Part shown: one piece after another, positions 211 to 56,188 of the stretch
Layout: each line of letters opens with the position of its first letter
How positions within the stretch are numbered: the first letter of the stretch is position 1
From: a virus
Lineage: Duplodnaviria > Heunggongvirae > Uroviricota > Caudoviricetes
Virus record (IMG/VR): IMGVR_UViG_3300020042_002824
Direction: 5' to 3' (one strand)
DNA: 64,000 nucleotides
Program-made: the position numbers and the translations under genes
Notes under the pieces: generated by a model
What the model was told of the DNA's origin: nothing
The model's input: only the letters and a program-made list of their open reading frames with translations
Databases searched by the model: none

Positions 211-462
211 TTATCCATTTTCTGTTAATTTAGTAGGTGCCCATAAATAAGATAGTAGATGATATGGCTTATCACCATACTTTGGCTCAGCAATGTATTG
301 TCTACCTTTACATTCTGTCTTGAGCTGTTCTGGTGTAAGTATCATCAACTTACCCTTGTACTCAACCTCATAGTTCTCGTTCTTGATAATGCATTCTTTA
401 ACACTGTGGTCAATTAGATCTGCGTACTTCTTGTCATGAAGCTTTAGAATTGTTCTTTTCAT
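211..462 (-). CDS. hypothetical protein (~83 aa)
   Basis: ORF track 211..528. Start trimmed to the internal Met (MKRTILKLHDKKY), which gives a small overlap with the upstream HNH gene stop. No recognisable motif. Confidence 0.4.
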   Translation of the reverse strand: MKRTILKLHDKKYADLIDHSVKECIIKNENYEVEYKGKLMILTPEQLKTECKGRQYIAEPKYGDKPYHLLSYLWAPTKLTENG

Positions 463-859
463 TTTTATCTGTTTTTGTTTTCTTGTCGTGACATTTCTCG
501 CACAGCACCTGTAAATTGTCCACCTCACAGAATAATCTGTCTACAAATCCTGGTAGGTCTTGTGCAGAATTAAGACTTCCTGCTGGGCAAATATGATCTA
601 CATTAATCTTCTTCTCAATAAACCAGTTTTTACACGTATTGCATTGATACTCATACTTTTGTCTCTTGTTTACACCCTTGTACAGTCTGCGTGCTTGTAG
701 CTTACATTCTGTAATAGGCTTCCAAAACCTAGACTTCTGTCTAAGGGCACTGCGTATAAAGCTCCAGAATACTGACTCTGTCATAGTGCCAGCACATCTT
801 GGTTTACTAACTATTTTCCTAGGTATCTTAGAGATTCTCTTTGTTGCGTTCTTTTTCAT
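434..859 (-). CDS. HNH family endonuclease (free-standing, homing-endonuclease-like)
   Basis: Motifs CNTCKNWF...VDHICP...LQVLCEKCHDKK match the HNH/zinc-finger core (C-x2-C ... H ... C-x2-C-H). Start trimmed from the track's 913 to Met at 859 (MKKNATKRISK), because the track's N-terminal extension translates the 874-897 hairpin. Confidence 0.7.
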   Translation of the reverse strand: MKKNATKRISKIPRKIVSKPRCAGTMTESVFWSFIRSALRQKSRFWKPITECKLQARRLYKGVNKRQKYEYQCNTCKNWFIEKKINVDHICPAGSLNSAQDLPGFVDRLFCEVDNLQVLCEKCHDKKTKTDKNEKNNSKAS

Positions 860-873
860 AATTGTTAAATTAA

Positions 874-897
874 TCCCAGGGAACTTAATCCCTGGGA
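874..897. repeat. perfect 9-bp inverted repeat / hairpin (TCCCAGGGA acttaa TCCCTGGGA) between the 500-aa gene stop and the HNH gene start
   Basis: Read directly from the sequence. Sits in the 46-nt intergenic gap on the minus-strand operon. Confidence 0.6.
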
Positions 898-905
898 CTA
901 CAAAT

Positions 906-2408
906 TTAATCAATTTTTACAATTCTCTTTGATATTTCTTGTTTTATTTCATCAAGACTTTTGACAATTGTATACACCTCTACAGCAGATAACGCTGGTA
1001 AGTTGAAATCATGCTTCTTAGCTTCAGCTGTGAATCCTTCTTTAGCTTTCTCAGCCAAGTTTTGCAATTCGCGAATCGCATAAGACTCATCCAACTCTAA
1101 TGTATCAAAGTCAAGGTCATGTAAGATTTCTGTTGCTTCTTCACGAGGCACAGTCATAATTGGTAAATACTCATAGCATCTACCCTTAGACTCACCAATA
1201 CCTACAACTTTCATTGGGTTGATAAGTATAAGAACGCTCGTATCACCACAACCTACATAATGAATCTCATCACTAGTGAAGTGTAATCCTGCATGTGCAC
1301 AGTCTGCTCTTGACCAATTGCATTCCTCCATAGGCATATTCACTGGTCTACCAATTCTGATGTCAAATGTCTTTGTGTGAGCATCTGTGAATCTATTTTC
1401 TGCTCTATTAGGCAAATCAAGATATAGTTCTGTTAAGTTACCAATCTCTTCACCATATTGAGACTCACAATGTTTGTACACTGTACCAGATCCAGAACAC
1501 TCATAACATTCAGAACTATCATCCCATTCTTCATCTTCACAAGGAATAGTTCCTGAACTATCACAGAATGTACATGGCTCTAGTTCTTCAAATACAGATT
1601 TATGAACCATTACATATTCACCATGCTTTAAGAACACAGTGTAATCAGCTGGGTTCTTCTTCCATACAGCCTTAATCTTATTATATGCATTAGACACAAA
1701 CTGTACCAATTCTGTAGATCCATGTAATGTAACTACATTTCTCAAAGCTACAAAGAAGCCTTGTTTAGTGATACTAAAGCTATTCTTCTTTAAGAAGTTA
1801 AATAGATCATTTGCAACTTCAGCTCTTGGATTCAAGCAACACCACATGAAGAATCTATGTAAAGCATTGAATTCATCATTATCTGTGTTACCATGTTTAC
1901 CAACCACTTCTAAGAATTCTTCCACTAATAATGGAGGTAGACTTCTGTTGATACCTTTTAGATACAAAGCATTATTCTTCATTTCAAACTGATCAAGGGT
2001 AGCTAAATACTCAGCACCTCTTTGAATAGCTTTAGCTTTCTCATATTCAGCTTCAGCTTTCCTTCTTTCAGATTGTATCTCTGGAGATCCAACAAGGTTC
2101 AATAAGCAAGCTTCTGTTGTACAAGTTTTAGCTTTGGTAAAATCATCTGCATTAGCAGGAGACTTTGTAATAATATTACCATCATTCAATACAATAGTCA
2201 GTGTATCATTAACCATTTTGATATTCAAATAGGGCTTTGTCACTGCTGTATTGGTATTAGTTGAATACCATGTATTGTTTGAAGAAGGGGTTTGTACCCC
2301 CTCTTCTTGTTGTTTATCTAATTGATCAAACGCTTGTTCAATCTTGTTTTCTACTACCTTTTCAATTGTGCGTTCTATAGCACTTTTAAACCATTTTAAA
2401 CTTAACAT
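906..2408 (-). CDS. 500-aa protein with DnaJ-type zinc-finger repeats (CTFCDSSG ... CYECSGSG); candidate co-chaperone-like partner of the downstream Hsp90-like gene
   Basis: Two CxxCxGxG-type repeats (DnaJ cysteine-rich domain signature) at about nt 1450-1575. No J-domain HPD motif seen. Abuts the Hsp90-like gene with an 11-nt gap in the same orientation. Confidence 0.55.
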   Translation of the reverse strand: MLSLKWFKSAIERTIEKVVENKIEQAFDQLDKQQEEGVQTPSSNNTWYSTNTNTAVTKPYLNIKMVNDTLTIVLNDGNIITKSPANADDFTKAKTCTTEACLLNLVGSPEIQSERRKAEAEYEKAKAIQRGAEYLATLDQFEMKNNALYLKGINRSLPPLLVEEFLEVVGKHGNTDNDEFNALHRFFMWCCLNPRAEVANDLFNFLKKNSFSITKQGFFVALRNVVTLHGSTELVQFVSNAYNKIKAVWKKNPADYTVFLKHGEYVMVHKSVFEELEPCTFCDSSGTIPCEDEEWDDSSECYECSGSGTVYKHCESQYGEEIGNLTELYLDLPNRAENRFTDAHTKTFDIRIGRPVNMPMEECNWSRADCAHAGLHFTSDEIHYVGCGDTSVLILINPMKVVGIGESKGRCYEYLPIMTVPREEATEILHDLDFDTLELDESYAIRELQNLAEKAKEGFTAEAKKHDFNLPALSAVEVYTIVKSLDEIKQEISKRIVKID

Positions 2409-2418
2409 GTTTTTGTTT

Positions 2419-4776
2419 TTAAATTGTTTCTAATTCATCAATTGTGTCTTCTGTCAATGTCTCCTCTAAAGGAGCATCTTCTGTTAATATGAGCTTGTAA
2501 TGCTCTAAGTTCACTTTGTGTTTATAATACTTAAATAGATCAATGATAGCTTTTACAATACCAGAATCTGTATTAGATCTGGTGCTATAAGTTGTTTTAT
2601 CTAGCAATGTATTTAAGAATGGTAGTTTGCTAAACACTTCACAAACTTGTTTATATGTTGTATATATAGGTTCATCATATAACCTATTCTCTGTAGCATG
2701 CAATATGATTGCTTTTATAGTTTCTTGATCTGCATAACTTCTATGGTTTTTATCATCATAGTTTTTCAGCTCTAGCAATTTACTTGCCAGATCAGTAGAG
2801 ATGTCTTCCACTACATGAATTCTTCTAAATGTAGAATCCTTTTTCTCAATAAGATCACGTATTAAGAACTCTGTTGCTATCACCTTAAATGGTTTGTTCT
2901 TACCTTCCATAAATTTATCTAATGTTATCCAGTTATGTAAATCAGCTTTCTGTAAGTTATCATGGGTTGCTTGGGCTACTAGTACAAAATTCACTAGGTG
3001 ATTACCACGTGACCACAACGCATCCATTTTCTTCTTATCAACTTCTTTAGCATAAACATGTAACTTGTTGACTTTATGAGCATCCTCTAGTTTAAATGTT
3101 GTAGGAACAAACTTACAATATTGATCAGATAGATTAATATCCATTGGTGTACCCACCTTACCAGAGAACTCACCTTTCATTCTAACCTTCTTAGGACCCT
3201 TTACAGCTGCAATAGATACCTTCATTCGTTTAGCTTTCTGAGCATCTTTATATGATTGTGGTATTTCAATAGCGTCTGCATCTATAAAATCCTTGGCATA
3301 TAGTCCCACTACATACTGAAACTCTGTAATAAGTTGTCTCCATTGAGACTTTGGATAGCTACTAAGTTCTAAAACAGAATCATAAAACTTGCCATAATCA
3401 ACAGCTCCAGTTTTGCTTCTAAGCTTAAATGGTGCCTTCTTAACAAAATAGATGTGTTTATTACCTGGCAGAATAGTTCTTAGATAGTCTTGCTTACCCT
3501 TAGGAAGTTCATGACTATAAATGTATACACCACCAAAGTTATAACCTACTAAGTCTGACATTCTTAAATGATCATAATAGTAGCTTTTCATGTTCTGAAA
3601 CTTACTATTAACAAATCTATACTTAAACTTATACTCAGCAAGCATGTATTCTTTACCTTTTACAGCAAGTCTTTCTAAGTTCAATAACTTTATATTATCT
3701 AACTTAGGCTGTGCTACAGGTATACGTGAATGTTGTACAAGTCTGTCTATCTCATACTCTGGTTGATTAGGATCATTATACCAAGGTTTCATGTACTTAT
3801 TATTTCTACCATAGAATTCCATGATGGCTTTGATATCACTCTTTGTAGTGATGGCCTCGTTGAACTTCTCCATCCATACATCAGCCACTGTAGCTATCTT
3901 CTTAAGAATAGTTTCCTTAGCTTCCTTAGTATATCTAATAGCTTCTCTATTTGGTGTAGGGAATAATCCATCACTAAGACTGAATCTCAAAGCTAATTTC
4001 ATACCTATTCTATCAATGCCAAGCTTTTCCCAGTCAATAGGATAACTAACATTATCTAGACAAAGATGCATGTCATTGTTAGTGGCTAAGCTAGAATATT
4101 GGAAATGCTCACTTCTATATATTGTAAAGTCATTAGGAACAGTGTAACTGCCCAATGGTTCTACATCAAAATAAACATCATCAAAATAAGCTAGCTGCTC
4201 TTTAATCTTATTGTGGAATGAATGTCTGTCATAATAGTTAACAGGAACAATCACTTTTACACCATTGTCTTCTGTGGTTGGTATTTCATATAGAAGGTCA
4301 ATGCTGTTTGTATCTTCTCCTTCGTACATCATATACTTACGTTCCATACCATCTTTTCTACATACAAAGTAGAAACTAGAACTATAAGCTAATGGAGCCT
4401 TGAAACCAAGACCCATCATGCCTAACTCTGTATTACTGTCTCTTTTGGTTGACTTACCATACTTACTGATGATATTACGTACATCATCTGCATCTAAGCC
4501 AATACCAAAATCCTGAACAGAAAATTCATATGTATCTGCCTGTGTGTTTCTTTTAAATGAAACAATAATAGGCTTGTCACTTCCAGCTCTTCTGTGACTA
4601 TCAAGTGCATTGGATGCACATTCTCTGATAGTAGAGCCTATTGAATCTGAATATAGATTCTTACTTAACATCTGCATAAGGACTTGTGCAGAATCTAAGT
4701 CTAGTGACATTTTCACAGTTTCCTGTGTTTCTCCTTCTTGGAGGATGTGGGCTTCTGTCTGTTTTTCTAAAATCAT
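2419..4776 (-). CDS. Hsp90/HtpG-family GHKL ATPase (785 aa)
   Basis: N-terminus aligns by eye to the HtpG/Hsp90 N-domain: LMQMLSKNLYSDSIGSTIRECASNALDS versus HtpG [27 protein letters not shown] (Bergerat E-x3-N-A-x-D). G1 box DFGIGLDADDVRNIISKYGKSTK versus DNGVGMT..LGTIAKSGTK. G2 box GMMGLGFKAPLAYSSSF versus GQFGVGFYSAF. Confidence 0.75.
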   Translation of the reverse strand: MILEKQTEAHILQEGETQETVKMSLDLDSAQVLMQMLSKNLYSDSIGSTIRECASNALDSHRRAGSDKPIIVSFKRNTQADTYEFSVQDFGIGLDADDVRNIISKYGKSTKRDSNTELGMMGLGFKAPLAYSSSFYFVCRKDGMERKYMMYEGEDTNSIDLLYEIPTTEDNGVKVIVPVNYYDRHSFHNKIKEQLAYFDDVYFDVEPLGSYTVPNDFTIYRSEHFQYSSLATNNDMHLCLDNVSYPIDWEKLGIDRIGMKLALRFSLSDGLFPTPNREAIRYTKEAKETILKKIATVADVWMEKFNEAITTKSDIKAIMEFYGRNNKYMKPWYNDPNQPEYEIDRLVQHSRIPVAQPKLDNIKLLNLERLAVKGKEYMLAEYKFKYRFVNSKFQNMKSYYYDHLRMSDLVGYNFGGVYIYSHELPKGKQDYLRTILPGNKHIYFVKKAPFKLRSKTGAVDYGKFYDSVLELSSYPKSQWRQLITEFQYVVGLYAKDFIDADAIEIPQSYKDAQKAKRMKVSIAAVKGPKKVRMKGEFSGKVGTPMDINLSDQYCKFVPTTFKLEDAHKVNKLHVYAKEVDKKKMDALWSRGNHLVNFVLVAQATHDNLQKADLHNWITLDKFMEGKNKPFKVIATEFLIRDLIEKKDSTFRRIHVVEDISTDLASKLLELKNYDDKNHRSYADQETIKAIILHATENRLYDEPIYTTYKQVCEVFSKLPFLNTLLDKTTYSTRSNTDSGIVKAIIDLFKYYKHKVNLEHYKLILTEDAPLEETLTEDTIDELETI

Positions 4777-4780
4777 TGTA

Positions 4781-5143
4781 TTAGTAGTTTACTGTAATTT
4801 TAAATTCTCTTAGGACTTTTTTGTCTTCTAAGAGTCTTTCTATTGTTTCTTGGTCTGTAATGTTTTCTCTGTTTAATTTTATAATTCTATACTCATCTGG
4901 TGTATTAACATAGCTCTTGCCCATTTGAGGAACAGTAAGTGGTCTCATTGGTTTATCACCTTTCCATTGGTCTAGTTGTATTTTATGCCAATTTTTAGAT
5001 GATGAAGCAGAACCAGGTGATAAATACTGGACTGTTCCTCCTTGTCCTCGTCCAAGATAAATACCAATGCTTATGTAATTATTACTAGCCACAGCTATAA
5101 TATCACCTTTTTGGATTTCTCCTCCATTTTTAACTTTGATCAT
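4781..5143 (-). CDS. hypothetical protein (120 aa)
   Basis: ORF in the tightly packed minus-strand operon; no recognisable motif. Confidence 0.5.
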   Translation of the reverse strand: MIKVKNGGEIQKGDIIAVASNNYISIGIYLGRGQGGTVQYLSPGSASSSKNWHKIQLDQWKGDKPMRPLTVPQMGKSYVNTPDEYRIIKLNRENITDQETIERLLEDKKVLREFKITVNY

Positions 5144-5454: not shown

Positions 5455-6171
5455 TTAAAATGGTGTGTCCAACATCCAATCTATTTCTAGGTTGTTGTTG
5501 TCTTTTAATAGTTTGTTAATCTTTGTAAATGTTCCTTCTGTATCCCATTCTGTTTGCTTGTAAGAAGCACTGGCTGGATGACTTAATGTGAAATGAAATG
5601 TAAATGGTGCTACATACTTTTCATACTTAGCAGCATCTTTACCTAGAAACAATACAGGAGTCATCGTTGTACCTAAGACATCTTCAAATAGATACTTAGT
5701 AAATGGTTCCCACAGGTCTATATGAGAGCCTGCTTTGTTTATTTCTGTTGTAAGAGCAGCGTTGTACATTAGAATGCCTTGTTGTGCCAAGAATGACACA
5801 TCTGATGGTCTTTCACATGTTACACAAAGTCCATTATATAATTCCTTTTCTATGCCATCATAAAACTTCTGTAAGGATGGCTGTAATATACCTGTAGTGG
5901 AACAGCCCATCAATAGGCCATCTGCTACAAATTGTCCCTTCTTTATAGAGTGATATGGACACATACCCACCATGACTAACTTTAAGTCATCATAGGAAGT
6001 CTCCTGAAAGCATCTGAATACGTTAGGAGAAAGAGGGGCAATCTGCCTGCCCCTCTGACTCTCTTTCTTAAGGAATTTATAGATGTTATCACATGCTTCG
6101 CTCTCAATAAAAGGTTGCATAAACCTGTGCCAGGAAGGATGGAACTGATCTTTAAATTTCTCCCACGTCAT
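5455..6171 (-). CDS. ung: uracil-DNA glycosylase (family 1, Ung-like)
   Basis: W..F......IAPLSPNVFRCFQETSYDDLKLVMVGMCPYHS matches the UDG signature (P..vF.af....f.dvKVVILGQDPYH) with the water-activating loop. Start trimmed to MTWEKFKD (ATG at 6169-6171), 2 nt after the upstream gene stop. Confidence 0.75.
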   Translation of the reverse strand: MTWEKFKDQFHPSWHRFMQPFIESEACDNIYKFLKKESQRGRQIAPLSPNVFRCFQETSYDDLKLVMVGMCPYHSIKKGQFVADGLLMGCSTTGILQPSLQKFYDGIEKELYNGLCVTCERPSDVSFLAQQGILMYNAALTTEINKAGSHIDLWEPFTKYLFEDVLGTTMTPVLFLGKDAAKYEKYVAPFTFHFTLSHPASASYKQTEWDTEGTFTKINKLLKDNNNLEIDWMLDTPF

Positions 6172-6173
6172 AA

Positions 6174-6935
6174 TTAAAATATTGATAATTGTGTAAATGC
6201 CTTTTCTTCTGATTCCCATGGTGCTGACTGATCATACGCATATTCATTGAAGAATCTGTGTGCTTTGATATGACTCTCCATCCAGTTAGCAGGATGTGAT
6301 TCTTTCATAGCAAATGTGGTGTAGTTGTACAACTCCCATACGCTATCTTTAGCACCATAATCATGTGTAGGAGCTTTTAACTCTCTACTGATAATATTCA
6401 ATTGTGTAGATGTAATGAATTGTTCTTCTAACATCATTCTACCAATCAACTCAGCTTTGACACGTTTAGTTATTTCTATTTGCTTCATGTCTTCTCTTTG
6501 CTTTTGCATAAGGAAGAATGTATCTCCTGCAGACTTGATATAATCTTCAATTGCATTTGGTGTGAATGATTGTATCTCACCAACATGCTTCTTTTTGAAT
6601 GTACCAAAGTCTCCTGACACACAACCATTTTGACAAATAAATATACGTGTACCAATAGCAAACTTTAATGTAAGTTGCTTGTTGTAGCTGTTCTGCCAAC
6701 CAATTTGTAATTGCATCTCACTATCTGCAACGTTACTAATACTAAATCTACCATTAGCAATCTGACCATCAGCAGCAGCTGAATAGGTTTCTTTGTCTAA
6801 TGTAAATCCTGCTTTCTCAATACTGTTTAATGTTAAGTCAATCAATTGTGAATGACTCACTGGCTTATATGTACGTGTTTGTACAGGAACTGGTGTATTC
6901 ATCATCAGTTCCTTAGTGGTGTTAAAATTCTCCAT
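6174..6935 (-). CDS. hypothetical protein (253 aa)
   Basis: Long ORF in the replication operon; no motif recognised. Confidence 0.55.
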   Translation of the reverse strand: MENFNTTKELMMNTPVPVQTRTYKPVSHSQLIDLTLNSIEKAGFTLDKETYSAAADGQIANGRFSISNVADSEMQLQIGWQNSYNKQLTLKFAIGTRIFICQNGCVSGDFGTFKKKHVGEIQSFTPNAIEDYIKSAGDTFFLMQKQREDMKQIEITKRVKAELIGRMMLEEQFITSTQLNIISRELKAPTHDYGAKDSVWELYNYTTFAMKESHPANWMESHIKAHRFFNEYAYDQSAPWESEEKAFTQLSIF

Positions 6936-21994: not shown

Positions 21995-22222
21995 CTAATT
22001 AGTTTTTAATAGTGATATGGATTCATCGTTATCTTCTGACAAAACTCCATACATAATAAATGTCATAAGAGAATAGAAAAACTGAACTGCTACAAATACA
22101 CCAGATGTAACAGCTTCTGTATAACTAAATGAGAACCATGTAGTTAGCAAAAAGAATGCTACTAACATGTAAGGAATGCTCCATAGGAACATAATGTTAA
22201 TGAGATGTTTGATTAATTTCAT
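21995..22222 (-). CDS. small membrane protein (2-3 transmembrane helices)
   Basis: IMFLWSIPYMLVAFFLLTTWF and GVFVAVQFFYSLMTFIMYGVL. Last gene of the leftward block. Confidence 0.45.
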   Translation of the reverse strand: MKLIKHLINIMFLWSIPYMLVAFFLLTTWFSFSYTEAVTSGVFVAVQFFYSLMTFIMYGVLSEDNDESISLLKTN

Positions 22223-23040
22223 GTGAATGTATGTTAATTGATTGATTATTAATGTGTTGTGTAAATAAAAATTTGATAGGCTGAGTGTTGACCTTCAATG
22301 TTATCATTTTCACAATGTTACCATTGCTTATACACACCAAGAATTACTTCTTAGTAGATAACAGTACCAGTATTTTACCTCACTCCTGAGGGATCTTTCT
22401 CTAGTTTAAATAAGTATTAATTTCTACCAAGTGGATTGGATAATCCTAAGCTACATCCCTGCAGCTACTTAGATATACTTTTTTTACTTCACAATTTTCC
22501 TTTCAGTACTAATTGTGCTGTCATTTTACATACAGATAAGGTACTTTGAACTAGAGAACTAACAGACTTTGTGAATTATTAATTTAATAATTTACAATAG
22601 CATAGTCCAGAACGTGCCATCAGATTATAGCTTACTCCCTTTTGAGGAATACGTACTATAACGTCCCAGTATAGATTACCAGTCTATGGTAGTTTAAGAT
22701 GCTATTACCACACCTTTGTCTACTGAATAACGCAGTTGTTCTTTTGGTAAAGTACTTCCACATATATTCTACAGGTTTTATCCTATTGCAGTTTCCTGCT
22801 CAATGGTGTATGCTGACACCATAGCTACTCAGAGGTTTCCCCACTATAGCTGTTACCCATTTGCTTACTTGGCCAGCACGAAGCTGTAGATATGCACTTG
22901 TTAATACATACCTTTTATACCTGTCACCAGGTTTATCCTAAAGACTATAAGCAGCCTTATCAAATTAGTTGACAATCAAGTTGTCTTTACGTGTACACCA
23001 TGAGTATTTCAACTCTGAAGGTTTTGATGTCGTACACTTA

Positions 23041-23068
23041 TCATTATAATCAGATTTGATTATAATGA
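23041..23068. repeat. perfect 11-bp inverted repeat (TCATTATAATC agattt GATTATAATGA)
   Basis: Read directly; inside the ORF-free region. Confidence 0.45.
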
Positions 23069-23410
23069 ATATACATTCAGGTATATCAGCCTACACAGTC
23101 TTGTAACTATAACTGGACTGTCCCACGCCAGCAACTTACTGGATACTGCTACATTTACAACGCTAGATTGTTCAACCTAGCCTTCTGTAACAGGAGAAGC
23201 ATAATGTATTAGTATAGGTTTTCAACTAATACTTGTAGCGTTTTCGTCCACTATTATAATACTCTTGTACTCAATGTACGTATGACATATCTTTTTGTCA
23301 GAATATTATATTCGTAGCTACATTATGAATCCCTCTGTACTCAAATGTGAGGTAGGTAGTCATTTAATCCTCATCTCATCTGTCTATCCTTGGGAAATAG
23401 AAATGGTACA

Positions 23411-23683
23411 TTATAACATGTCAGAATTAAATGACTCATTAAACTCATTAGCCATATCACCATTAAGAATTGAACTACTATAAGAAGAAGCAAAATCTAA
23501 CTCATAATAACCATTATGTTTATTAGCCATAAGTTTAGCATCCTCTAATGTATCTGTAAACCCTATATATCTATTACTATTATCATAGATAGAATAGAAA
23601 GCGTCATATCCCATATAAATGTTATTTAATGCTATATATATTGTTTGTATAGCGTAAATGAATGATGTGTCAAAATGTGTCAA
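23411..23683 (-). CDS. hypothetical protein (90 aa)
   Basis: Isolated ORF in the switch region. Confidence 0.4.
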   Translation of the reverse strand: MTHFDTSFIYAIQTIYIALNNIYMGYDAFYSIYDNSNRYIGFTDTLEDAKLMANKHNGYYELDFASSYSSSILNGDMANEFNESFNSDML

Positions 23684-23791
23684 TAAGTGGGGAAAGAGTA
23701 CACACCACCTCTCACAGCCACAGATAAAATGTTGAGAATCAATAGGTTGTCTCTCTTTTTACGCAACAAAGGTTCTATGCAAGTATAGAAA

Positions 23792-23825: not shown

Positions 23826-23836
23826 TAATGCTTTGA

Positions 23837-24226: not shown

Positions 24227-24256
24227 AGTTTTCTGTTTTTGTTTTTAATTAATAAT

Positions 24257-44039: not shown

Positions 44040-45026
44040 ATGTCATATTATTACAAGTATAACTTTGTCTCTCCTGATCCAGTTTATTCAACTGTTAAGG
44101 AAGAGTTAAAGTCTTATTTTGACACAGGAGCAGTTGATGATTTATTGTTCCCCACCTACTTAGACAAATGTCTTAAGAAGTTAGGTAGGGCAACTTATGT
44201 TATTAGTGAAGAGGTGTTATATGTAGAAGACTTTGAAGCTAGACTCCCAGATAACTTTTACGCTGTAAGAGAAGCTTGGATGTGTACAACAGTTGCTGGC
44301 TATCCATATCAAACAGCCAATTCATTCTACTCTCAAGCAGTTTCACAAACCACAATACAGGTAACTCCTGTAACAGTGGGTGGTACTCCTTGTGTTGATT
44401 GTCAACATGACAATGCTTGTGTCAATCCTGAATGTGATGGTAGTTGTTTACCTGTAGTTATTCCTGCTGTATACAAAACAAATCAACAAGGAACCAGAGC
44501 ATACTCACATGAGTATTTACTCAAACCAGGTAATATATCTGCTAGACAGAATTGTGACGTAACGTATACAAATGCTTGGGAGTTTTATCAAACTGCTCCT
44601 CCTATTAGAGAGTTCACTCCAGGATCTGCTGGTTATGATAGCTTTGATATTAGAGATAATAAGTTTGTTACCAACTTCAGAAATGGAATAGTGCATTTGA
44701 TATTCTATGCTACAGAGTATGATTGTGTTGGTAATCAAATGATTCCAGACAACTATCGTATTAGAGAGTTTGTTGAGGCATTCCTTAAATATAAAGTGTT
44801 TGAAACATTGTCTAATCAACTAACTGATGAAACATTCCAACAAATACAACAGAAGCTAATTTACTATAAAGCATTACATGATGAGGCTTTTATAATGGCA
44901 ATGATTGAGATTAAGAAACAGGATGCATGGACTAAGCAAAGACGTGTAAGAAATGACTTACAACGTTTTGCACAATATGAATTACCAAACAGAAGCTCAA
45001 GATATGGACATGGATGGAACAGATAA
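44040..45026 (+). CDS. structural-module protein (328 aa) with Cys cluster
   Basis: GGTPCVDCQHDNACVNPECDGSCLP. Confidence 0.5.
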   Translation: MSYYYKYNFVSPDPVYSTVKEELKSYFDTGAVDDLLFPTYLDKCLKKLGRATYVISEEVLYVEDFEARLPDNFYAVREAWMCTTVAGYPYQTANSFYSQAVSQTTIQVTPVTVGGTPCVDCQHDNACVNPECDGSCLPVVIPAVYKTNQQGTRAYSHEYLLKPGNISARQNCDVTYTNAWEFYQTAPPIREFTPGSAGYDSFDIRDNKFVTNFRNGIVHLIFYATEYDCVGNQMIPDNYRIREFVEAFLKYKVFETLSNQLTDETFQQIQQKLIYYKALHDEAFIMAMIEIKKQDAWTKQRRVRNDLQRFAQYELPNRSSRYGHGWNR

Positions 45027-48000
45027 TCAAGGAACCTCTAGTGTAAGACAAGAATTTAATCTTGGTAGAGTAGGACTAGACATGGACTCTTCTGTAAATC
45101 AAATACAGAAGGGGAAACTTTCTTATGCCCTAAACGCAGCATTAGAGAACTTTGACTCTAATTCTGTAAACTATCAGAACGAACCTTCAAATGAAGCTTG
45201 TTTAGATTTCCCTGAAGGCTACCAACTTATTGGTACACACTTCATCCAAGAGAAAAATAAACATATATTCTTCTTAGCTAATCCTGAAACAGGAGGAAGT
45301 GAGATAGGATATATGAATAACAATGACTGTGTATATCATTTATTGTGTACTCCAATCCCTGATACAGAATTAACAGTTTGTGCAAATTCAACTTGTTTGA
45401 ACTTTGACATCAACTATCCTATTCATAAAGCTGTACATAAGATTACCAACTGTACCACTGAGGTTTACTGGACAGATGGTCTTAATCCAAGAAGATATAT
45501 TAATATTGATTCAATTCCATACATCACCACATTTACAGGTGATCAAAATTGTGATCCAATCATCACTCCTGTCCTTGACTGTAATAAGTTAAAGGTGCAA
45601 CCTAACTTCACAATCCCTAACTTAGATGTTACTGATGTTGTTGTAGGTGGAGATTTAAAAGCAGGAGCTTATCAATTTGCTATTCAATATTGTAATGCAT
45701 CAGGAGATGCATATACATCATACTACTCAATTACTAATCCTGTATCTATTGCAAACACAGAGATAACAACACCTGACTTTCAATACTCTGTAGGAAAGTC
45801 TATTGTGTTGAGTATCAGTGATATAGATATTACAGGATACTTCCAATACTTTAACTTGGCTGTTATTAAAACAATTAATAATGGCACCACTGTAGAACTT
45901 GTAGGAACTTACAATATACAAGATAAGTCTAGAACCATCACTTATACAGGTCAGAACATAACTCAAATTCCTTTGAGTCTTAATGACATACTTGAGAAGT
46001 TTGCTTATTATGATATTGCTCAAGATGTTACAAATGTACAGGATGTTATTGTATGGGATAACCTTACATCTATTGATAGAATTAACTATCAAGGTATTGC
46101 TAATCAAATTCAACTTCAATGGGAGACATATAAGCTACCAGCTAACAATACGTATGCTGATGGCTTCTACACTGCCAATCTTAGAGGTTATTTAAGAGAT
46201 GAGGTATATGCATTTGAGATAGTCTTTTTATTAGACAATGGTAAACAAACAGATGGTTTCCATATTCCTGGTAGAGCATCAACATCTAATGATTTAATTG
46301 TTGTACCAAATACTAACGATGACTTTGTTGGAGAAGGAACTAGTGCTCCTTATTGGAAAATATATAACACAGCTAGTGTAACAGCTACATATCCTGTTCC
46401 TACAACAGATGCTGAAAAGATAGGAGATGCATATCCATACCAATCTGGAGACTTTGCATATTGGGAATCTACAGATACATATCCATGTAATGTGGATGTA
46501 TGGGGAGACCTTGCTGATGAACCAATTAGACATCATAAATTTCCTGATGTACTTGTAAGTCCTCACTTTGAGAGTGCTCCTATTATATATTCTGGTGGAC
46601 AGATACAACCAACAATGCAATCAGCTAGTGCTGTATATCCAATTGGTGTAAAGATAGATGTACAACAAGTAGCATTTCTCATCCAAGCATCTAGTTTAAC
46701 AGCTGCAGAGAAAGCCTCTATTGTTGGATTTAAGATAGTAAGAGGTAATAGAAGTACAAACAAATCTATTATTGCTAAGGGCATCCTTAGAAACGTGGGT
46801 AAATATGATAGAGAAGGAACTCCTTACTACTATCCTAACTACCCTTATAATGATCTTAATGAAGATCCATTTTTACTTGAGAAGAGCAACGCATACAATT
46901 CTCAATGTGACACGTTCAAAGTGACAGCAACTATTAATGGTAATTTTCAATATACAGATTGTAACACTGGACAAACAGCAATTTTTGCTTTTACAACAGC
47001 AACAACTCAGATATGTTCTATTACACTTCCTGTTGTAAATAGTGGAGCTGCTACATTTACAAATGTTACAGCTACAGCTTACACAATCACTGTTCCACTT
47101 GCTTGTGCTGGTGGTCCACCTGCATTTAGCTATACAGATCCTATCACTCAATCTTTAACAAACATCACTGTACAAAAAGGTACTTCAGTTACAGTAAATT
47201 CTTCTACTGTTCCTGTACGTATTAGTGGTTGCACAGGATACACAATAGTTGCTAACAATAACAATAAAAATACTGAATGTTATCCTGCTCAGTTAGATGG
47301 GTTTAACAATAATGAATCACCATACAGACAGGTGTTTAATTCACCAGAAACTTCTTTTGGACAACCTACATTAGGTAATGTTCTTAAGTTGGAGAGTGTA
47401 TTATTTGGAGCTGGTAGAGCTCACTTTGTACAAGTGAAGGAGCACGCAATGTACAAGCTTCTTACTAAACAAGCACAGATAGATGCTTTGAATTCTAGTA
47501 GAGCAATAGCTGATCTAGGTGGATTCAATGCAACTGCTATGTTCACAGCATATCAATCTTACTTACAGATATACATTAATGGAGTTAGTAGAAGAAACTT
47601 TGCATATTCTTTTAATTCTATATCTAGTTATGACTATAGCGAAGATATTCCTAATAATCAAGGAGTTAAACAAAGACAACTTGATAGATCTCAATATGTC
47701 TTCCCAGGTGTGCAATCTGTGGGAGATGATTATGATCTTAATAACTGGAACAGAGAATCATCAGTATATACCAAAAGTATTGAAACAAGAACTGGAGTGG
47801 GACCTGTACCAGCTTTACCATATCCTAATAAAACACCAAATCTTGTTGTAGCAGGTGTAAGTCAAATTAGTGATAATTCTAGATTTACACTTGGAGAATC
47901 AGGAAACTGTGGAACTCCTGAATTTCAACAAGATATAAAGGTTGTTTCATATTATGGTTCAATCAAGACAATTAACAATGGACAGTGGGGACAGATATAT

Positions 48001-50004
48001 TCCTATCAAACAATTGATACAGGATTCCAAAGAATATTTAATTCTCTACCAGCAAGTGGTGTTGAAGTGGTATTTGGTGGTGACACATTTATTAGTAAGT
48101 TTGGTTTCAAAACTAAGCTTCCATTCTTTATTGATAATAGAGTTAAGGCTCCTGATGATAGTGATATTTATTATGATGAGATAGGTAATATAGCCTATCC
48201 AGAATACTGGTACTCAGCAAGATCTGTATTGTATGACTATTATGTAGGATCTACATTAATGAAGAATATTATATCAGTGAAGGCTCATTACCTTGACTGT
48301 CCTAATGATGACATTGTAGATAATACATCAACTAGTACAACCACTACATCTACTACTCCTCCTATTGGCACCACTGCACCAGGAACATTTAATTATGTTT
48401 ATGATGGTAAGATGTATCTATTTGCTTATGGAGTTCCTTATTACTATGTAGAATCTTCTATTAATGTAGACTTGCGTCAAGCGTTCAATAACTTAGAAGG
48501 TGACTTCTACCCACATGTAAGTTCAGGTATTCCTGACCAATGGTTCCAAGAGAATAGAGTACCTATTGCGTTTGATAATACGTACTACTACAATACAACA
48601 TTCACTAAGCAAAACGTAGAGAACTTCTTCTCTCATTTGCCTACAGATTGGGTACAACAATTATGTTACACATATTTTCCATTTAGAGCAATATACTCTG
48701 ACAGACAAGAAAGTTATTCTGACAATAGAATAAATAGCTGGTTGATATATCGTCCAGCAAGCTTCTTTGACTTCCCTCAAAACTATGGTAACTTAGTATC
48801 ATTAGATGGTATACAGAACAGAGCAACCTTAGCTAGATTTGAGAATAAGACATTGTTATACAATAACTTGTTAACAATAGATACAAGTAATCCTCAATCT
48901 GCATATTTAGGAGGTGGTGAGTTATTTGGTAATGCACCCCCTATTGACTTTGCTGAAACAGATCTTGGTTATGTAGGATGTCAGAATAAAATGTTGCTTA
49001 GAATACCACAAGGTCAGGTGACTGTGGATGCCAAGAGAGGACAAATATTCTTAATTACTGGTACCCAAGCAACAGATATATCAGGATTTGGTTCTGGTCT
49101 AAACAGATTCTTTACAGACCATTTATCATTTGAAATATTAAGATACTTCCCAAATGTTGATATAGATAACAATTTCAAGAATATTGGTTTACATGGTGTG
49201 TTTGATAGCAAGTTTGATAGAGTTATTATTACTAAGTTAGACTACATCCCTCAACCAGGTAAGGAAATATTCTACGATGATGTGGCTAAAGAGTTTTATG
49301 TAAATCAACCAACTGCTGGTAATACATCAGTAAAAAGATTTGTAGCTGTAACAGACTTAGAATACTTCTGTAACAAATCATGGACTGCTTCATTTAACTT
49401 TAATACTAAAAGCTGGGTGAGTTTCCATACATACCTTCCTAACTTTTACATAGGAGAAAACAACTTCTTCTATTCTGGATTAAATGAAAGTTGTGATATC
49501 TCAGCAATAGCTGTTACAGAGATTCCTTCTCCTACCACTACAACCACTACAACAGTAATATACTATTGTAACTTGTCTGGTACAGCAGAGTGTACAGATT
49601 GTATAAGTACAACTACTACAACATCTAGTTCTACTTCAACAACTACTAGTACATCAACATCTACTACTACGTCTACTAGTACATCCACTAGTACAACCAC
49701 AACTACAACTACTGCTACACCAGAACCCACAACAACCACAACAACCACAACTTCAGAACCAACAACCACTACAACTACCACAACTATAACACCAGAACCA
49801 ACTACTACAACAACCAGCACTAGCACTAGCACAACAACCAGTACTTCTACTAGTACTACAACAACAACCACAACTGCTCCACCAGCACCAGGATGTGAAT
49901 TAGATGGAACAGCTGTAGAAGATTATCCAACTGGTGATTTCATAACAACAGAGGGTGGGGATCCAATTATAACAGAAGGCAGCAATAATTTAATTATAGA
50001 ATAA
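44953..50004 (+). CDS. giant virion protein (~1680 aa) with ~130-aa C-terminal poly-Thr/Ser/Pro mucin-like tract
   Basis: Long ORF; start uncertain (Met candidates at 44953, 44977, 45004 and 45010). Internal TSTTTTSTTPPIGTT and C-terminal TTTTSSSTSTTTSTSTSTTT...PEPTTTTTTTT repeats. Confidence 0.55.
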   Translation: MTYNVLHNMNYQTEAQDMDMDGTDNQGTSSVRQEFNLGRVGLDMDSSVNQIQKGKLSYALNAALENFDSNSVNYQNEPSNEACLDFPEGYQLIGTHFIQEKNKHIFFLANPETGGSEIGYMNNNDCVYHLLCTPIPDTELTVCANSTCLNFDINYPIHKAVHKITNCTTEVYWTDGLNPRRYINIDSIPYITTFTGDQNCDPIITPVLDCNKLKVQPNFTIPNLDVTDVVVGGDLKAGAYQFAIQYCNASGDAYTSYYSITNPVSIANTEITTPDFQYSVGKSIVLSISDIDITGYFQYFNLAVIKTINNGTTVELVGTYNIQDKSRTITYTGQNITQIPLSLNDILEKFAYYDIAQDVTNVQDVIVWDNLTSIDRINYQGIANQIQLQWETYKLPANNTYADGFYTANLRGYLRDEVYAFEIVFLLDNGKQTDGFHIPGRASTSNDLIVVPNTNDDFVGEGTSAPYWKIYNTASVTATYPVPTTDAEKIGDAYPYQSGDFAYWESTDTYPCNVDVWGDLADEPIRHHKFPDVLVSPHFESAPIIYSGGQIQPTMQSASAVYPIGVKIDVQQVAFLIQASSLTAAEKASIVGFKIVRGNRSTNKSIIAKGILRNVGKYDREGTPYYYPNYPYNDLNEDPFLLEKSNAYNSQCDTFKVTATINGNFQYTDCNTGQTAIFAFTTATTQICSITLPVVNSGAATFTNVTATAYTITVPLACAGGPPAFSYTDPITQSLTNITVQKGTSVTVNSSTVPVRISGCTGYTIVANNNNKNTECYPAQLDGFNNNESPYRQVFNSPETSFGQPTLGNVLKLESVLFGAGRAHFVQVKEHAMYKLLTKQAQIDALNSSRAIADLGGFNATAMFTAYQSYLQIYINGVSRRNFAYSFNSISSYDYSEDIPNNQGVKQRQLDRSQYVFPGVQSVGDDYDLNNWNRESSVYTKSIETRTGVGPVPALPYPNKTPNLVVAGVSQISDNSRFTLGESGNCGTPEFQQDIKVVSYYGSIKTINNGQWGQIYSYQTIDTGFQRIFNSLPASGVEVVFGGDTFISKFGFKTKLPFFIDNRVKAPDDSDIYYDEIGNIAYPEYWYSARSVLYDYYVGSTLMKNIISVKAHYLDCPNDDIVDNTSTSTTTTSTTPPIGTTAPGTFNYVYDGKMYLFAYGVPYYYVESSINVDLRQAFNNLEGDFYPHVSSGIPDQWFQENRVPIAFDNTYYYNTTFTKQNVENFFSHLPTDWVQQLCYTYFPFRAIYSDRQESYSDNRINSWLIYRPASFFDFPQNYGNLVSLDGIQNRATLARFENKTLLYNNLLTIDTSNPQSAYLGGGELFGNAPPIDFAETDLGYVGCQNKMLLRIPQGQVTVDAKRGQIFLITGTQATDISGFGSGLNRFFTDHLSFEILRYFPNVDIDNNFKNIGLHGVFDSKFDRVIITKLDYIPQPGKEIFYDDVAKEFYVNQPTAGNTSVKRFVAVTDLEYFCNKSWTASFNFNTKSWVSFHTYLPNFYIGENNFFYSGLNESCDISAIAVTEIPSPTTTTTTTVIYYCNLSGTAECTDCISTTTTTSSSTSTTTSTSTSTTTSTSTSTSTTTTTTTATPEPTTTTTTTTSEPTTTTTTTTITPEPTTTTTSTSTSTTTSTSTSTTTTTTTAPPAPGCELDGTAVEDYPTGDFITTEGGDPIITEGSNNLIIE

Positions 50005-50006
50005 AC

Positions 50007-50873
50007 ATGTCTAAAATAGTAATAATAAGATTAACATGCTCAGGTGGTAGAACTGGCCCCTTCAATATCTCTGATAGTGAAGGTAATGTTCTAGGCACCA
50101 ATATAACCAAACAAAACTTAATTGATGGTTATACTGTTAGTGTTGATGATGCTATTACTACAATAATTATACAATCTCAAGGTAAGTGTTCTACTAGTAT
50201 AAATGTTACAATTGGCACTGCCACTATAGAAGAACTTGCAGCTTTGACATATACAGTTTGTAATACAGGATCTATATGGAGACACTTAACAGACACATTA
50301 AACTATAATAAGTTCTATGGTAATATAGAACCATACATAATTGAATATCCTTTTAGCTACCAAAGCTATGATGAGATTCTTCAAAACATAAAAGACTACA
50401 GTAAGGTATATAACTATCTACCTCTTGTAGATGGTGTATTTAATGACAACGCTCAGATACAGGTTGATAATCAATGGTTTAACAAAGCTGTTCTATACAA
50501 TGGACAACAGTCTACAGGTGTATTAGAATTGGTACCAAAACCTATCAACAACCTAAGTGCATACTTAACATACCCTATGTACAATACTAATAGTAAAACC
50601 ATTATGTATACAAAGAGTGACAACTTTTATCAGTATAATACATTCTGGAGCTTAGTTAAAAATAAATCCATACCTTTATTCATGACGAGTTGTGACTCTT
50701 TATCAATAGATAAAGTTGTAAATCAAACAAATATGGATTATGGAAAAAGATCATTTAAGAAAGAACCATTAAGAGCTAAAGACCTTAAAGTGAGGCACAT
50801 ACTTGATAACAGCTCTGAAGCTCATATAGTTTCTCAATTCATTGTTGCACCTGCTCAAATCTCTTATAAGTAA
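50007..50873 (+). CDS. tail-associated protein (288 aa), N-domain paralogous to 40830..41378
   Basis: RLTCSGGRTGPFNISDSEGN...GYTVSVDDAITTIIIQSQGKCSTSINV versus TLTLAGADTGPFDIYSDADGY...GYTLTGVPNGATIIRVTSLSTCTNSVNM. Confidence 0.5.
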   Translation: MSKIVIIRLTCSGGRTGPFNISDSEGNVLGTNITKQNLIDGYTVSVDDAITTIIIQSQGKCSTSINVTIGTATIEELAALTYTVCNTGSIWRHLTDTLNYNKFYGNIEPYIIEYPFSYQSYDEILQNIKDYSKVYNYLPLVDGVFNDNAQIQVDNQWFNKAVLYNGQQSTGVLELVPKPINNLSAYLTYPMYNTNSKTIMYTKSDNFYQYNTFWSLVKNKSIPLFMTSCDSLSIDKVVNQTNMDYGKRSFKKEPLRAKDLKVRHILDNSSEAHIVSQFIVAPAQISYK

Positions 50874-53305
50874 TGAATAATAATATTAAATGCACATGTG
50901 GACATTCCTGGAGTAAAGCAAGCTCTAGTGGAAAAGACATGAATGTGTGTCACATATGTGGAAAGGATAACACCATGAAAAATGGAGGATGGTTAAATAA
51001 GTATGAGCAAGGAGGAATGGTTTTAGACCAACAGCCTGATGACAACTATGGTAAGAAACCTAATCCTAATGATGTCCAAGCATCTGTAGGTCCTGACTTT
51101 GTAGGACTTGGTTATGATACAACAGGTAGAAACTATTCTCCTGCATGGGGTGGACAGTTTGCAATGGGTGGTGCTTTACCAGGTGCTGTAGGATTCACAT
51201 ACGCACGTACACAGAATCCTGCTCCTTCTAATGGTAAGTATGCTAAGAAGACAAAAGCTTCTGCACAAGATGGTTTGTTAATGAACTTTGAACCAGAGAA
51301 GATGCGTTCAGATGCTACACGAGTGGCTCCTGCTGTAAGACCTCTTACAAAGAAAGAACAAGAAGAAAATGCTAGGATAAACAAAGAAAACCAGAAAAAG
51401 ACAGAAGAACGTGATAAGAAGATAGTAGCTGAAAGACAAGCTAATAAAAATACAAAGGGAGATCTAAGCACTCCTGGTAGCTGGCATACAGCAGATAAAC
51501 TTAGACTATTTCCTGGCAGTGTTGGTGGAGTGGGAGAAATGTTTGATGAGTATGTAAACCCAGCTTACGTAGTTGGATCTTTAACAGATCAACTTGGAGA
51601 ATCTGTAGCTAGAAGAGATGTTGGTGGTGCTGCTGCAACATTAGCTATGACTGCAGGATTAGGTGCGTTAGGAGTTGATCCATTAGGAGATGTTATGAAA
51701 GCTCAGCGTTGGTCTCAAGGGGCAGTAGATCGTCTTGGTTATAATGTACAAACTGCAGGTCCAAGATTAGGTAGTTCTACAAGAAGTCTTGAATCAGCAA
51801 CTGCTGCAGAAAGATCTCAACAACAATTAGATCTTATACGTCAACAAAGACGTTCAGAAGCAGTGTCACGAGGAAGTCAAAGCACAAGAGCTCCTTATCA
51901 GTTTCCTACAGATGAAGAACTTGCTATAATGAATGCACGTGAGGCTGAAAGATATGCTCCTAGAGTTAGTCGTCAGTCTACAGGAACTCCTGAGGATATG
52001 ACTGCGTTAGATAGATTTGAGAGAATACAACAAGTAGACCCTGGTCCATCATATGCTGAATTAATGGAATATCCATCAGCTAGAAGAGTTGATTCTCAAG
52101 CAGAATCAGCACAGCAAGCAGCAATGAATGATATAAGAAGAGAAACTAATTTTCCTGTTGATGCTACTAATCCAAACTCTGTAGTGCATTCTAATAACCC
52201 AACGTTAACTTATGAAAGGTTAAATAGAAGAATAGATGCATTAAGAACTTCTGGTATTTCAGATGACATTATTGCACAAGATGTACAATATCTTCGTGAG
52301 GGACGTCCTATGAGATCTTTATCTCAACTAAGAGGAGCACCAGGTTCTGTACCACGTCCTCCAGAAGTAAGAACTGGACCCACTGAAAAACAATGGAGTC
52401 CTGAAAACTTTCGTATTGGTGAAGGTAATGATGCAGGTAAGTTTAGAACAGCACATCCTGAAGGACATAATATATATGAAGATATAGATATATCACCTAT
52501 AAATAATTCAATAGATAGAAGATATAAAATAGTAGACAAAGATAAGTCTATGAATTATGTAGAAGTTAAAACTTCACAAGACGCAGGAGATCCATATGTT
52601 GATGTAAATGATATAAGTTTCTTTAACAGAGACCCTAACAGTAGCTCTAAGCAAATGAATATAGTATTTAGTCATTTGCCTAAACAAGCACGTATATCAC
52701 CAATAAGTACAAGCGTTCACTCTCAGCCATTGTTAAATACACGTATTGCTAAATTAACTAGTGGTCAACCAGGTAGAATAAAAATTGAGCCAAATGAATA
52801 CATGGGTACTTTAAATAAGATTACTCGTAATGAGGGCTTTAGTCCTCTTGCTTGGTATGATGAAACAGTTGAGCAATTTCCAAAACTTGAAAGAACATAT
52901 GAAACTCTTAATAAATATACAGGATCAAATTTACAAATGCCTTATATAAAGTTTCAAGGACAAAAGTTACCATTTGAAGAATTTAATACACCTGAATTTA
53001 GAAGACTTGTTGAAAACAACCCTTCACTTTTAGGAGATGCAGATGTAATGGTTAATAAATACAAGACAATTAAAAACTGGAAGAATGGTGGACAGATTGT
53101 AGACTCAATGGGACAATGGGCACACCCAGGAAAAACAACTACTATTCCAGGTAATGATATTACTATGAAAGGTGTTAACTATGATGTACTAGGTGTAAGT
53201 AACACTGGTGACAAAAAGTTGATGAAACCAGGAAAGAATTATAAATTTGATGGAGATTATGTCACTGAATATCCAAAAGGTGGCTGGCTAAATAAATATA
53301 AATAA
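50873..53305 (+). CDS. large virion protein (810 aa) with N-terminal zinc-ribbon-like motif and GGWLNKY motif at both termini
   Basis: CTCGHSWSK...CHICGK, then NGGWLNKYEQGG, then a C-terminus ending KGGWLNKYK. Confidence 0.5.
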   Translation: MNNNIKCTCGHSWSKASSSGKDMNVCHICGKDNTMKNGGWLNKYEQGGMVLDQQPDDNYGKKPNPNDVQASVGPDFVGLGYDTTGRNYSPAWGGQFAMGGALPGAVGFTYARTQNPAPSNGKYAKKTKASAQDGLLMNFEPEKMRSDATRVAPAVRPLTKKEQEENARINKENQKKTEERDKKIVAERQANKNTKGDLSTPGSWHTADKLRLFPGSVGGVGEMFDEYVNPAYVVGSLTDQLGESVARRDVGGAAATLAMTAGLGALGVDPLGDVMKAQRWSQGAVDRLGYNVQTAGPRLGSSTRSLESATAAERSQQQLDLIRQQRRSEAVSRGSQSTRAPYQFPTDEELAIMNAREAERYAPRVSRQSTGTPEDMTALDRFERIQQVDPGPSYAELMEYPSARRVDSQAESAQQAAMNDIRRETNFPVDATNPNSVVHSNNPTLTYERLNRRIDALRTSGISDDIIAQDVQYLREGRPMRSLSQLRGAPGSVPRPPEVRTGPTEKQWSPENFRIGEGNDAGKFRTAHPEGHNIYEDIDISPINNSIDRRYKIVDKDKSMNYVEVKTSQDAGDPYVDVNDISFFNRDPNSSSKQMNIVFSHLPKQARISPISTSVHSQPLLNTRIAKLTSGQPGRIKIEPNEYMGTLNKITRNEGFSPLAWYDETVEQFPKLERTYETLNKYTGSNLQMPYIKFQGQKLPFEEFNTPEFRRLVENNPSLLGDADVMVNKYKTIKNWKNGGQIVDSMGQWAHPGKTTTIPGNDITMKGVNYDVLGVSNTGDKKLMKPGKNYKFDGDYVTEYPKGGWLNKYK

Positions 53306-53325
53306 ACCACATATAAACGTTTGAT

Positions 53326-56112: not shown

Positions 56113-56188
56113 CTAATTCAGTTATAGTGAATTACTAAAATTTGTTATAGCTCTTGGTAATTCTAATATTTTAAATTAATTTTGTATT

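Follow-up and report, generated by a model that had tools for sequence, protein, structure and literature searches.

The DNA considered here is a 64,000-nucleotide (nt) stretch of the IMG/VR virus record IMGVR_UViG_3300020042_002824 (Caudoviricetes), referred to below as the window. Two adjacent minus-strand genes, encoding proteins of 785 and 500 amino acids (aa), are the subject of this analysis. Both open reading frames (ORFs) are real at the coordinates collected in Table 1, with the 785-aa gene upstream and the 500-aa gene downstream. An earlier interpretation drawn from the letters alone (hereafter, the sequence-only reading) had taken them for an Hsp90/HtpG-family ATPase next to a protein with a DnaJ-type zinc finger, a pair thought to be unusual in phages. 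Homology searches assign the two products instead to the phage protein families RIIA and RIIB, and the locus to the rIIA-rIIB operon.

The assignment of the larger product rests on a match to PHROG 612 (RIIA lysis inhibitor) at an E-value (E) of 2.5e-58, in which residues 1-742 align with positions 1-720 of the 725-position profile, and on a BLASTP alignment of residues 1-309 with a T4-like RIIA (E 4e-18). The smaller product matches three PHROG RIIB families, namely 609 (E 3.6e-16), 11221 (E 6e-9), and 36818 (E 2.3e-6). By BLASTP, it aligns in two colinear blocks with RIIB from a T4-like phage (E 9e-7 and 8e-5), from the crAss-like phage cr116_1 (E 6e-13 and 2e-12), and from the Streptomyces phage Beuffert (E 5e-5 and 7e-4). 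Homologs of RIIA were found by tblastn in 2,665 of 50,697 phage records, mostly annotated as "rIIA protector from prophage-induced early lysis". The share, about 5%, agrees with that given for rIIB in a 2026 review, which describes the gene as part of an rIIA-containing operon (PMC13434031).

Table 1. Features of the rIIA-rIIB locus, in window coordinates
Feature	Position	Strand	Basis or remark
rIIA gene, 785 aa	2419..4776	-	End coordinate takes in the stop codon (2419..2421); PHROG 612, BLASTP, tblastn
rIIA: N-terminal Bergerat-fold (GHKL) ATPase domain, about residues 26-195	4192..4701	-	Pfam, PDB profile search, hhalign
rIIA: conserved motif T-P-N-R-E, residues 274-278, consensus TPSREAL	3943..3957	-	Candidate ATP-sensing Arg (inferred)
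rIIA: C-terminal region, residues 341-785, family-specific	2422..3756	-	Covered by the PHROG 612 match
Intergenic spacer between rIIA stop and rIIB start, 10 nt, A-rich, operon junction	2409..2418	-	
rIIB gene, 500 aa, long form	906..2408	-	PHROG 609 and 11221, BLASTP blocks, AlphaFold model, BFVD
rIIB: conserved N-terminal block, about residues 60-225, last strand GFFVALRNV	1734..2231	-	BLASTP
rIIB: insertion relative to T4, crAss-like, and Streptomyces-phage RIIB, about residues 226-336	1401..1733	-	BLASTP, MAFFT of 31 sequences
rIIB: four-Cys zinc-knuckle insert, about residues 276-312, C279-x2-C282...C301-x2-C304-x-G-x-G, variable acidic linker	1473..1583	-	
rIIB: conserved C-terminal core, about residues 337-430: FTDAHT, IRIG, GLH (376), NP (397-398), K408xR410	1119..1400	-	

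Gene order is equally characteristic. The sequence-only reading had rightly seen the genes as neighbors in one operon but had put the gap between them at 11 nt, one more than is measured. In a set of 80 related viral loci, retrieved from IMG/VR with a 15-sequence alignment, 70 had enough upstream sequence to be scored for the upstream gene; rIIA lies directly upstream of rIIB on the same strand in all 70, so that the co-occurrence in relatives proposed as a check on the pair is strict. The modal gap across the related loci is 10-12 nt. The same order recurs in the T4-like phage CAM-21 (gap 11 nt), in Beuffert, and in cr116_1, where an intron-type endonuclease (L001 2779-3492) splits rIIA. The A-rich leaders of both start codons (2409..2440 and 4777..4830, minus strand; for example, TAAAAACAAAAACATG) contain no recognizable Shine-Dalgarno sequence, and the guanine-cytosine (GC) content is about 35%. 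Both features would fit a Bacteroidota-type host.

Fused versions of the two proteins exist in other phages. Escherichia phage RB43 encodes a RIIA-RIIB fusion of 1049 aa (Q56C47), and PHROG 609 is a fusion profile of 1055 positions to which both products of the present locus align: RIIA residues 31-189 with positions 30-186, and RIIB residues 13-227 with positions 787-956. Here, unlike in RB43, the two are separate polypeptides. That both halves match one fusion family supports a physical and functional partnership between RIIA and RIIB.

Comparison with T4 shows both the kinship and the distance. The two loci share the order rIIA then rIIB with a tiny gap. Their RIIA proteins fall in the same length class (725 aa in T4, 785 aa here) and have in common the GHKL motifs, the N-terminal LY...RE..N..DA helix, and a TPSRE motif, while the RIIB proteins share two colinear blocks that include GLH and NPxDVV. 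Identity is nevertheless only about 22% for RIIA and 27-30% for the RIIB blocks. T4 RIIB has 312 aa and an N-terminal helix-turn-helix (HTH); the 500-aa protein described here lacks the HTH, as does crAss-like RIIB, and has in its place a different N-terminal beta/helical module, together with an insertion of about 110 aa that holds a zinc knuckle. The closest annotated RIIB is that of cr116_1 (Crassvirales, Steigviridae), which shares both blocks including the N-terminal module but, at 320 aa, is without both the knuckle and the subfamily insertion.

Searched by megablast, the locus matched none of the 50,697 phage records, and the phage therefore has no close cultured relative. It is distantly related to Cellulophaga phi4:1-like phages, Leptolyngbya phage Lbo-JY46, and crAss-like phages; the respective terminase identities are 31%, 40%, and 26-29% (about 26% for cr116_1). 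The locus is very probably a divergent rIIA-rIIB operon of an uncultured phage of roughly 100-115 kb, most likely acting as an rII counter-defense pair. As such, it is a divergent member of a long-known, mechanistically unsolved module that is widespread in large phages. Correct filing as rIIA-rIIB matters in practice, since it prevents a false annotation as a viral Hsp90/DnaJ chaperone. An RIIA homolog of an Acinetobacter phage (GenBank CAKLQD020000001.1, 122912-123775) has been auto-annotated as "Molecular chaperone, HSP90 family"; pipelines therefore already detect the Hsp90-like N-terminal domain (N-domain) and can mislabel RIIA.

The RIIA ATPase domain and its relation to Hsp90

The N-terminal domain of RIIA contains the GHKL elements in the correct order: LYSDSIGSTIRECASNALD at residues 41-59, ending in RE..SNALD (51-59); DFGIG at 89-93; GIGL...KSTK at 91-111, with KSTK at 108-111; and GMMGLG/GLGFKAPLAYSS at 119-133, in which GMMGLGFKA occupies 119-127 and GLGFKAPLAYSS occupies 122-133. 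The sequence-only reading had identified these boxes and their order correctly. The helix-1 pattern that it quoted, L..M..LYS...I..RE..SNA.D, fails when applied literally as a regular expression; the spacing differs. The Bergerat motifs are kept in 11 of 11 diverse RIIA sequences and hold in up to 31, among which R51, E52, N56, D59, D89, G91, G93, S109, K111, G119, G122, G124, K126, R277, and E278 are invariant. The domain itself is not a novelty, as had been supposed. RIIA has already been described as an N-terminal GHKL ATPase with a highly variable C-terminus, and its members as counter-defense orthologs (PMC7824862).

Placement of the domain within the GHKL superfamily depends on the depth of the query. 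With the single RIIA sequence, Pfam HATPase_c (26.4 bits) and HATPase_c_3 (25.2 bits) both score at their cut-offs; NCBIfam returns an HSP90-family model (32.8 bits), sacsin (29.3), TopoVI-B (28.7), and MutL (16); and phmmer against the PDB gives weak matches to TopoVI-B and MORC2 (E 0.01-0.1). The last of these results is misleading and is superseded by a profile built from 11 diverse RIIA N-termini. The top 60 PDB matches listed for that profile are all Hsp90-family N-domains, with best E-values of 1e-10 for TRAP1, 5e-10 for HtpG, 1e-8 for Grp94, and 4e-8 for Hsp90-alpha, and the likeness begins at helix 1, takes in the lid, and continues to the domain end. Comparison by hhalign agrees: the alignment with Escherichia coli HtpG spans 170 columns and HtpG residues 3-200 (97.1% probability, E 5e-11), against 104 columns for MutL (80.7%, E 1.3e-5). 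The earlier claim that the N-domain is specifically Hsp90-like, beyond a generic GHKL fold, is borne out by these comparisons. T4 RIIA has the same N-terminal LY....I...REL..N..DA pattern, and at the level of sequence profiles the Hsp90-like N-domain is a property of the entire RIIA family. The closer profile-level affinity of the RIIA ATPase for Hsp90 than for MutL, MORC, or topoisomerase ATPases provides an entry point to the rII mechanism, which is still unsolved.

The resemblance ends at the N-domain boundary in every RIIA-Hsp90 alignment. Pfam PF00183, which covers the middle and C-terminal domains of HSP90, matched none of 31 diverse RIIAs, even at E<=10. The NCBIfam HSP90-family model (PRK14083) aligned with residues 33-117 only and scored 32.8 bits against a cut-off of 455. 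A profile of RIIA residues 180-340 retrieved no Hsp90, MutL, or GyrB chain from the PDB, its best match being a chance PSREE in an unrelated poly(A) polymerase (E 0.046), and hhalign of the post-ATPase region with the MutL transducer (S5-fold) gave no significant match. Unlike the Hsp90 family, RIIA has no detectable middle domain or C-terminal dimerization domain; it has a 450-aa C-terminal region of its own, for which no Pfam or NCBIfam match was found. Hence, the sequence-only reading went too far in calling the protein an Hsp90/HtpG-family ATPase, and on present evidence membership of RIIA in the Hsp90 family is rejected.

One motif beyond the ATPase domain deserves separate consideration. 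The T-P-N-R-E motif lies after a beta-strand and before a long predicted helix, and its R277 and E278 are invariant in the 31 RIIAs, which include T4-, N4-, FelixO1-, Caulobacter-, and Streptomyces-phage types. The sole local alignment that hhalign produced with the HtpG middle domain sets this motif on the loop LNVSREILQ, at a non-significant level (E 0.32, probability 0.2%). SRE occurs once in HtpG residues 1-493, at 335-337, and includes R336, the catalytic arginine of the middle domain. The spacing between the N-domain and the Arg motif is about 55 aa shorter in RIIA than in the Hsp90 family. Because the PSREE match to poly(A) polymerase scored better, the (S/N)RE resemblance can be due to chance. 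E52, D89, and R277 are concrete mutational targets for the rII mechanism, on which the invariant (S/N)RE motif also offers a handle.

RIIB architecture and the four-cysteine knuckle

In BLASTP against reference RIIBs, the first of the two colinear blocks of RIIB spans about residues 66-225. The N-terminal block aligns with residues 7-155 of cr116_1 RIIB (E 2e-12), 128-217 of the T4-like protein, and 98-149 of the Beuffert protein. The C-terminal core corresponds to T4-like residues 221-301 (E 9e-7), cr116_1 residues 161-313 (E 6e-13), and Beuffert residues 173-233, and the second block as a whole reaches about residues 337-491 in BLASTP against reference RIIBs. The blocks are contiguous in RIIBs of 309-320 aa, and the roughly 110 aa that separate them here are therefore considered an insertion. 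About 75 aa of it are common to a subfamily of long RIIBs in the MAFFT alignment of 31 sequences. An exhaustive search of representatives found 1,123 relatives, and the residues listed for the C-terminal core in Table 1 are invariant or nearly so in 100 diverse sequences.

An AlphaFold model of RIIB built with 100 diverse sequences reached a predicted local distance difference test score (pLDDT) of 86.8 and a predicted template modeling score (pTM) of 0.78. Searched against BFVD, the model gave 30 matches at E<=1e-3, the named ones nearly all being RIIB or "protector from prophage-induced early lysis"; the RB43 fusion is among them. Since BFVD RIIB matches range from 265 to 644 aa, a long, HTH-less, knuckle-bearing RIIB falls inside the known variability of the family. 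Foldseek of the model against the PDB gave no significant match. The predicted fold is without counterpart among solved structures, which offers another handle on the rII mechanism.

Within the insertion, as a further insert of about 40 aa, lies the four-Cys element on which the DnaJ interpretation was founded. Two CxxCxGxG repeats had been reported; the one at C301 (CYECSGSG) is exact, but the one at C279 (CTFCDSSG) conforms only to CxxCxxxG, and many close homologs have CxxCDGSG at that position. The motif is no product of chance: its four Cys and the Gly residues that follow do not vary across 25 close homologs, and only 1.4% of shuffled versions of the protein contain two CxxC motifs within 40 aa. 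The knuckle region of the model has a pLDDT of 82-92, and among the weak local matches from Foldseek are the Cys-rich domain of DnaJ (1exk, probability 0.89, E 1.4) and the DNAJA3 zinc finger (2ctt).

The distribution of the knuckle is narrow. It is present in 72 of the 80 closer viral loci (52-88% identical) and in only 2 of 110 full-length representatives clustered at 50%; no CxxC of any kind occurs in 99 of the 110, and the RIIBs of T4, crAss-like, and Streptomyces phages have no knuckle. One sister group of long RIIBs at about 55-58% identity (IMG/VR loci L061-L063, L069, and L071-L073) also lacks it while retaining rIIA upstream, a pattern that points to recent acquisition or loss of the zinc hairpin. 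Since most RIIBs, including all those studied experimentally, have no knuckle, it cannot underlie the conserved RIIA-RIIB partnership. The long RIIB with its clade-specific knuckle, carried by an abundant uncultured phage lineage, illustrates diversification of the effector or specificity subunit of the module.

The element shares the CxxCxGxG-type signature with DnaJ and Anti-TRAP, has weak local matches to them in sequence and structure, and most resembles Anti-TRAP or half of a DnaJ Cys-rich domain. DnaJ combines four motifs into two sites; RIIB possesses two motifs, forming one predicted site, and is without a J domain, a G/F region, and the C-terminal domains of DnaJ. Scores with Pfam DnaJ_CXXCXGXG (PF00684; 11.5 bits, cut-off 32.7) and Anti-TRAP (PF15777; 18.7 bits, cut-off 32) fall below threshold. 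Neither protein contains an HPD motif, as the sequence-only reading had itself observed, and no DnaJ Pfam match was obtained. Moreover, the knuckle is a loop inserted into RIIB and limited to one sub-clade. A DnaJ-like co-chaperone reading of RIIB was therefore ruled out, and the supposed DnaJ-type zinc-finger partner is RIIB. The knuckle is a lineage-specific, single four-Cys hairpin of DnaJ Cys-rich/Anti-TRAP type with one predicted Zn site; it is no co-chaperone domain.

Probable counter-defense function and competing explanations

The T4 rII locus encodes protectors from prophage-induced early lysis, which act as a counter-defense against the abortive-infection system RexAB of lambda. Divergent rII pairs (<40% identity) of T4, MM02, EdH4, SUSP1, and N4, covering five phage genera, all counteract RexAB, and rII is dispensable where RexAB is absent (PMC11879866). 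In line with these results, transposon insertions in T4 rIIA and rIIB are depleted only when RexAB is present (bioRxiv 10.1101/2025.11.20.689424). RIIB is toxic on its own and acts as a trigger of bacterial gasdermin systems (PMC10312443). The sequences of the present locus show identity, synteny, conserved ATPase motifs, and domain anatomy; by analogy with the phages studied, a counter-defense role is most likely for this pair as well. By homology, it would act early in infection and would keep membrane energetics from being collapsed by an abortive-infection system of the host or a prophage. RIIA may work as an ATP-driven dimerizing clamp, as other GHKL/Hsp90-type ATPases do, with R277 as a candidate gamma-phosphate sensor, and RIIB may be a specificity or effector subunit regulated by RIIA. 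The zinc knuckle would then be a lineage-specific structural or interaction add-on and not a DnaJ-type client-binding domain.

Several points weigh against this interpretation. In the lineage to which the host probably belongs, no RexAB-like target is known. The function of RIIB could have diverged, given the missing T4-type HTH and the large insertions. The rII mechanism is unsolved even in T4, the clamp model being extrapolated from the GHKL fold, and ATP hydrolysis by any RIIA is not established in the literature examined. Finally, the AlphaFold model of RIIA, made from a multiple sequence alignment of 35 close homologs, is unreliable (pLDDT 53.7) and unusable, so that the post-ATPase domain and the role of R277 are putative.

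Among the competing explanations, a dedicated viral chaperone system, in which an Hsp90/HtpG-family chaperone and a DnaJ-like zinc-finger co-chaperone would remodel phage or host proteins, is highly improbable. In its favor, the ATPase domain is nearest to Hsp90 N-domains, the best NCBIfam match, weak as it is, is an HSP90-family model, one GenBank RIIA bears the chaperone label mentioned above, the invariant (S/N)RE followed by a helix recalls the HtpG catalytic-Arg loop, and the best local structural matches of the knuckle are DnaJ Cys-rich domains. Yet Pfam, NCBIfam, the PDB profile search, and hhalign all failed to reveal an Hsp90 middle or C-terminal domain, the motif likeness is outscored by the poly(A) polymerase match, and the partner, with a single four-Cys site and no J domain, remains far under the Pfam cut-offs and in most RIIBs, all experimentally studied ones included, has no knuckle at all. 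A dedicated chaperone/co-chaperone function is not indicated. The folding or remodeling system envisaged in the sequence-only reading gives way to the role documented for the module, counter-defense against RexAB (PMC11879866).

A bolder proposition retains the Hsp90 connection without the chaperone system. RIIA would be an ancient, phage-specific offshoot of Hsp90 that consists of an N-domain and a shortened middle-like module, with R277 completing the ATPase site as R336 does in HtpG. In concert with RIIB, it would act as a clamp of the Hsp90 kind, driven by ATP, to hold or remodel a membrane or defense protein of the host, and in this clade the zinc hairpin of RIIB, which resembles the Cys-rich domain of DnaJ, would have been acquired as an additional contact surface. 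We regard this as rather unlikely. If true, the 70-year-old rII problem would come down to an Hsp90-like clamp plus RIIB.

It is very unlikely that the pair is a DNA or transcription machine, with the RIIA ATPase acting on DNA or chromatin-like substrates in the manner of MutL, MORC, or topoisomerase subunits and RIIB serving as a DNA-binding regulator that adjusts phage replication or transcription to host state. The genes do lie within the replication module, on the same strand as those for primase, helicases, DNA polymerase, a uracil-DNA glycosylase (UDG), and an HNH endonuclease; T4 RIIB has an N-terminal HTH and is listed as a specific transcription factor (PMC7824862); and TopoVI-B and MORC2 are the best PDB matches of the single RIIA sequence. 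With the family profile, however, Hsp90 ranks clearly above MutL, MORC, and topoisomerases in the PDB, the MutL transducer finds no match, and the HTH is absent from this RIIB and from crAss-like RIIB. The dispensability of rII without RexAB also argues against a core role (PMC11879866; bioRxiv 10.1101/2025.11.20.689424). Least probable of all is that the RIIB core is an ADP-ribosyltransferase-like (ART-fold) effector directed at a host target and regulated or delivered by RIIA. Against this weak lead, no Pfam ART match was found in RIIB, the candidate catalytic Glu (E413) is not conserved in crAss-like or Streptomyces-phage RIIB, and R223 is Lys in the T4 and Beuffert proteins.

Genomic surroundings

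The replication genes of the window (primase, helicases, DNA polymerase, UDG, rII) are grouped as a module on the minus strand; its structural genes, for terminase, portal, major head protein, and tail proteins, form a plus-strand module. The transition from one to the other coincides with a sign change of both GC and AT skew near 24 kb (approximately 22000-26000). In metagenomes, the families of both rII products are very abundant and occur on contigs of about 100-120 kb.

Directly downstream of rIIB, and overlapping its 3' end by 8 nt, lies an HNH endonuclease gene (434..913, minus strand; PHROG 1985, E 1e-21, and Pfam HNH). The rII neighborhood of cr116_1 similarly contains primase, UDG, and homing endonucleases, and homing endonucleases seem to be repeatedly associated with rII loci.

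On the plus strand, 44953..59029 is occupied by very large ORFs of 1683, 288, 810, 928, and 946 aa. The 1683-aa product matches the virion structural protein families PHROG 37948 and 15100; the 810-, 928-, and 946-aa products match no PHROG at E<=1e-5. No tRNA gene was found in the 64 kb. The UDG-superfamily gene (5455..6219, minus strand) scores 22.3 bits with Pfam UDG, just under the cut-off, and matches PHROG 12143 (E 1.5e-31). As called, it overlaps the preceding DUF932-family gene (6174..6935, minus strand) by 46 nt, and its true start may be an internal Met.

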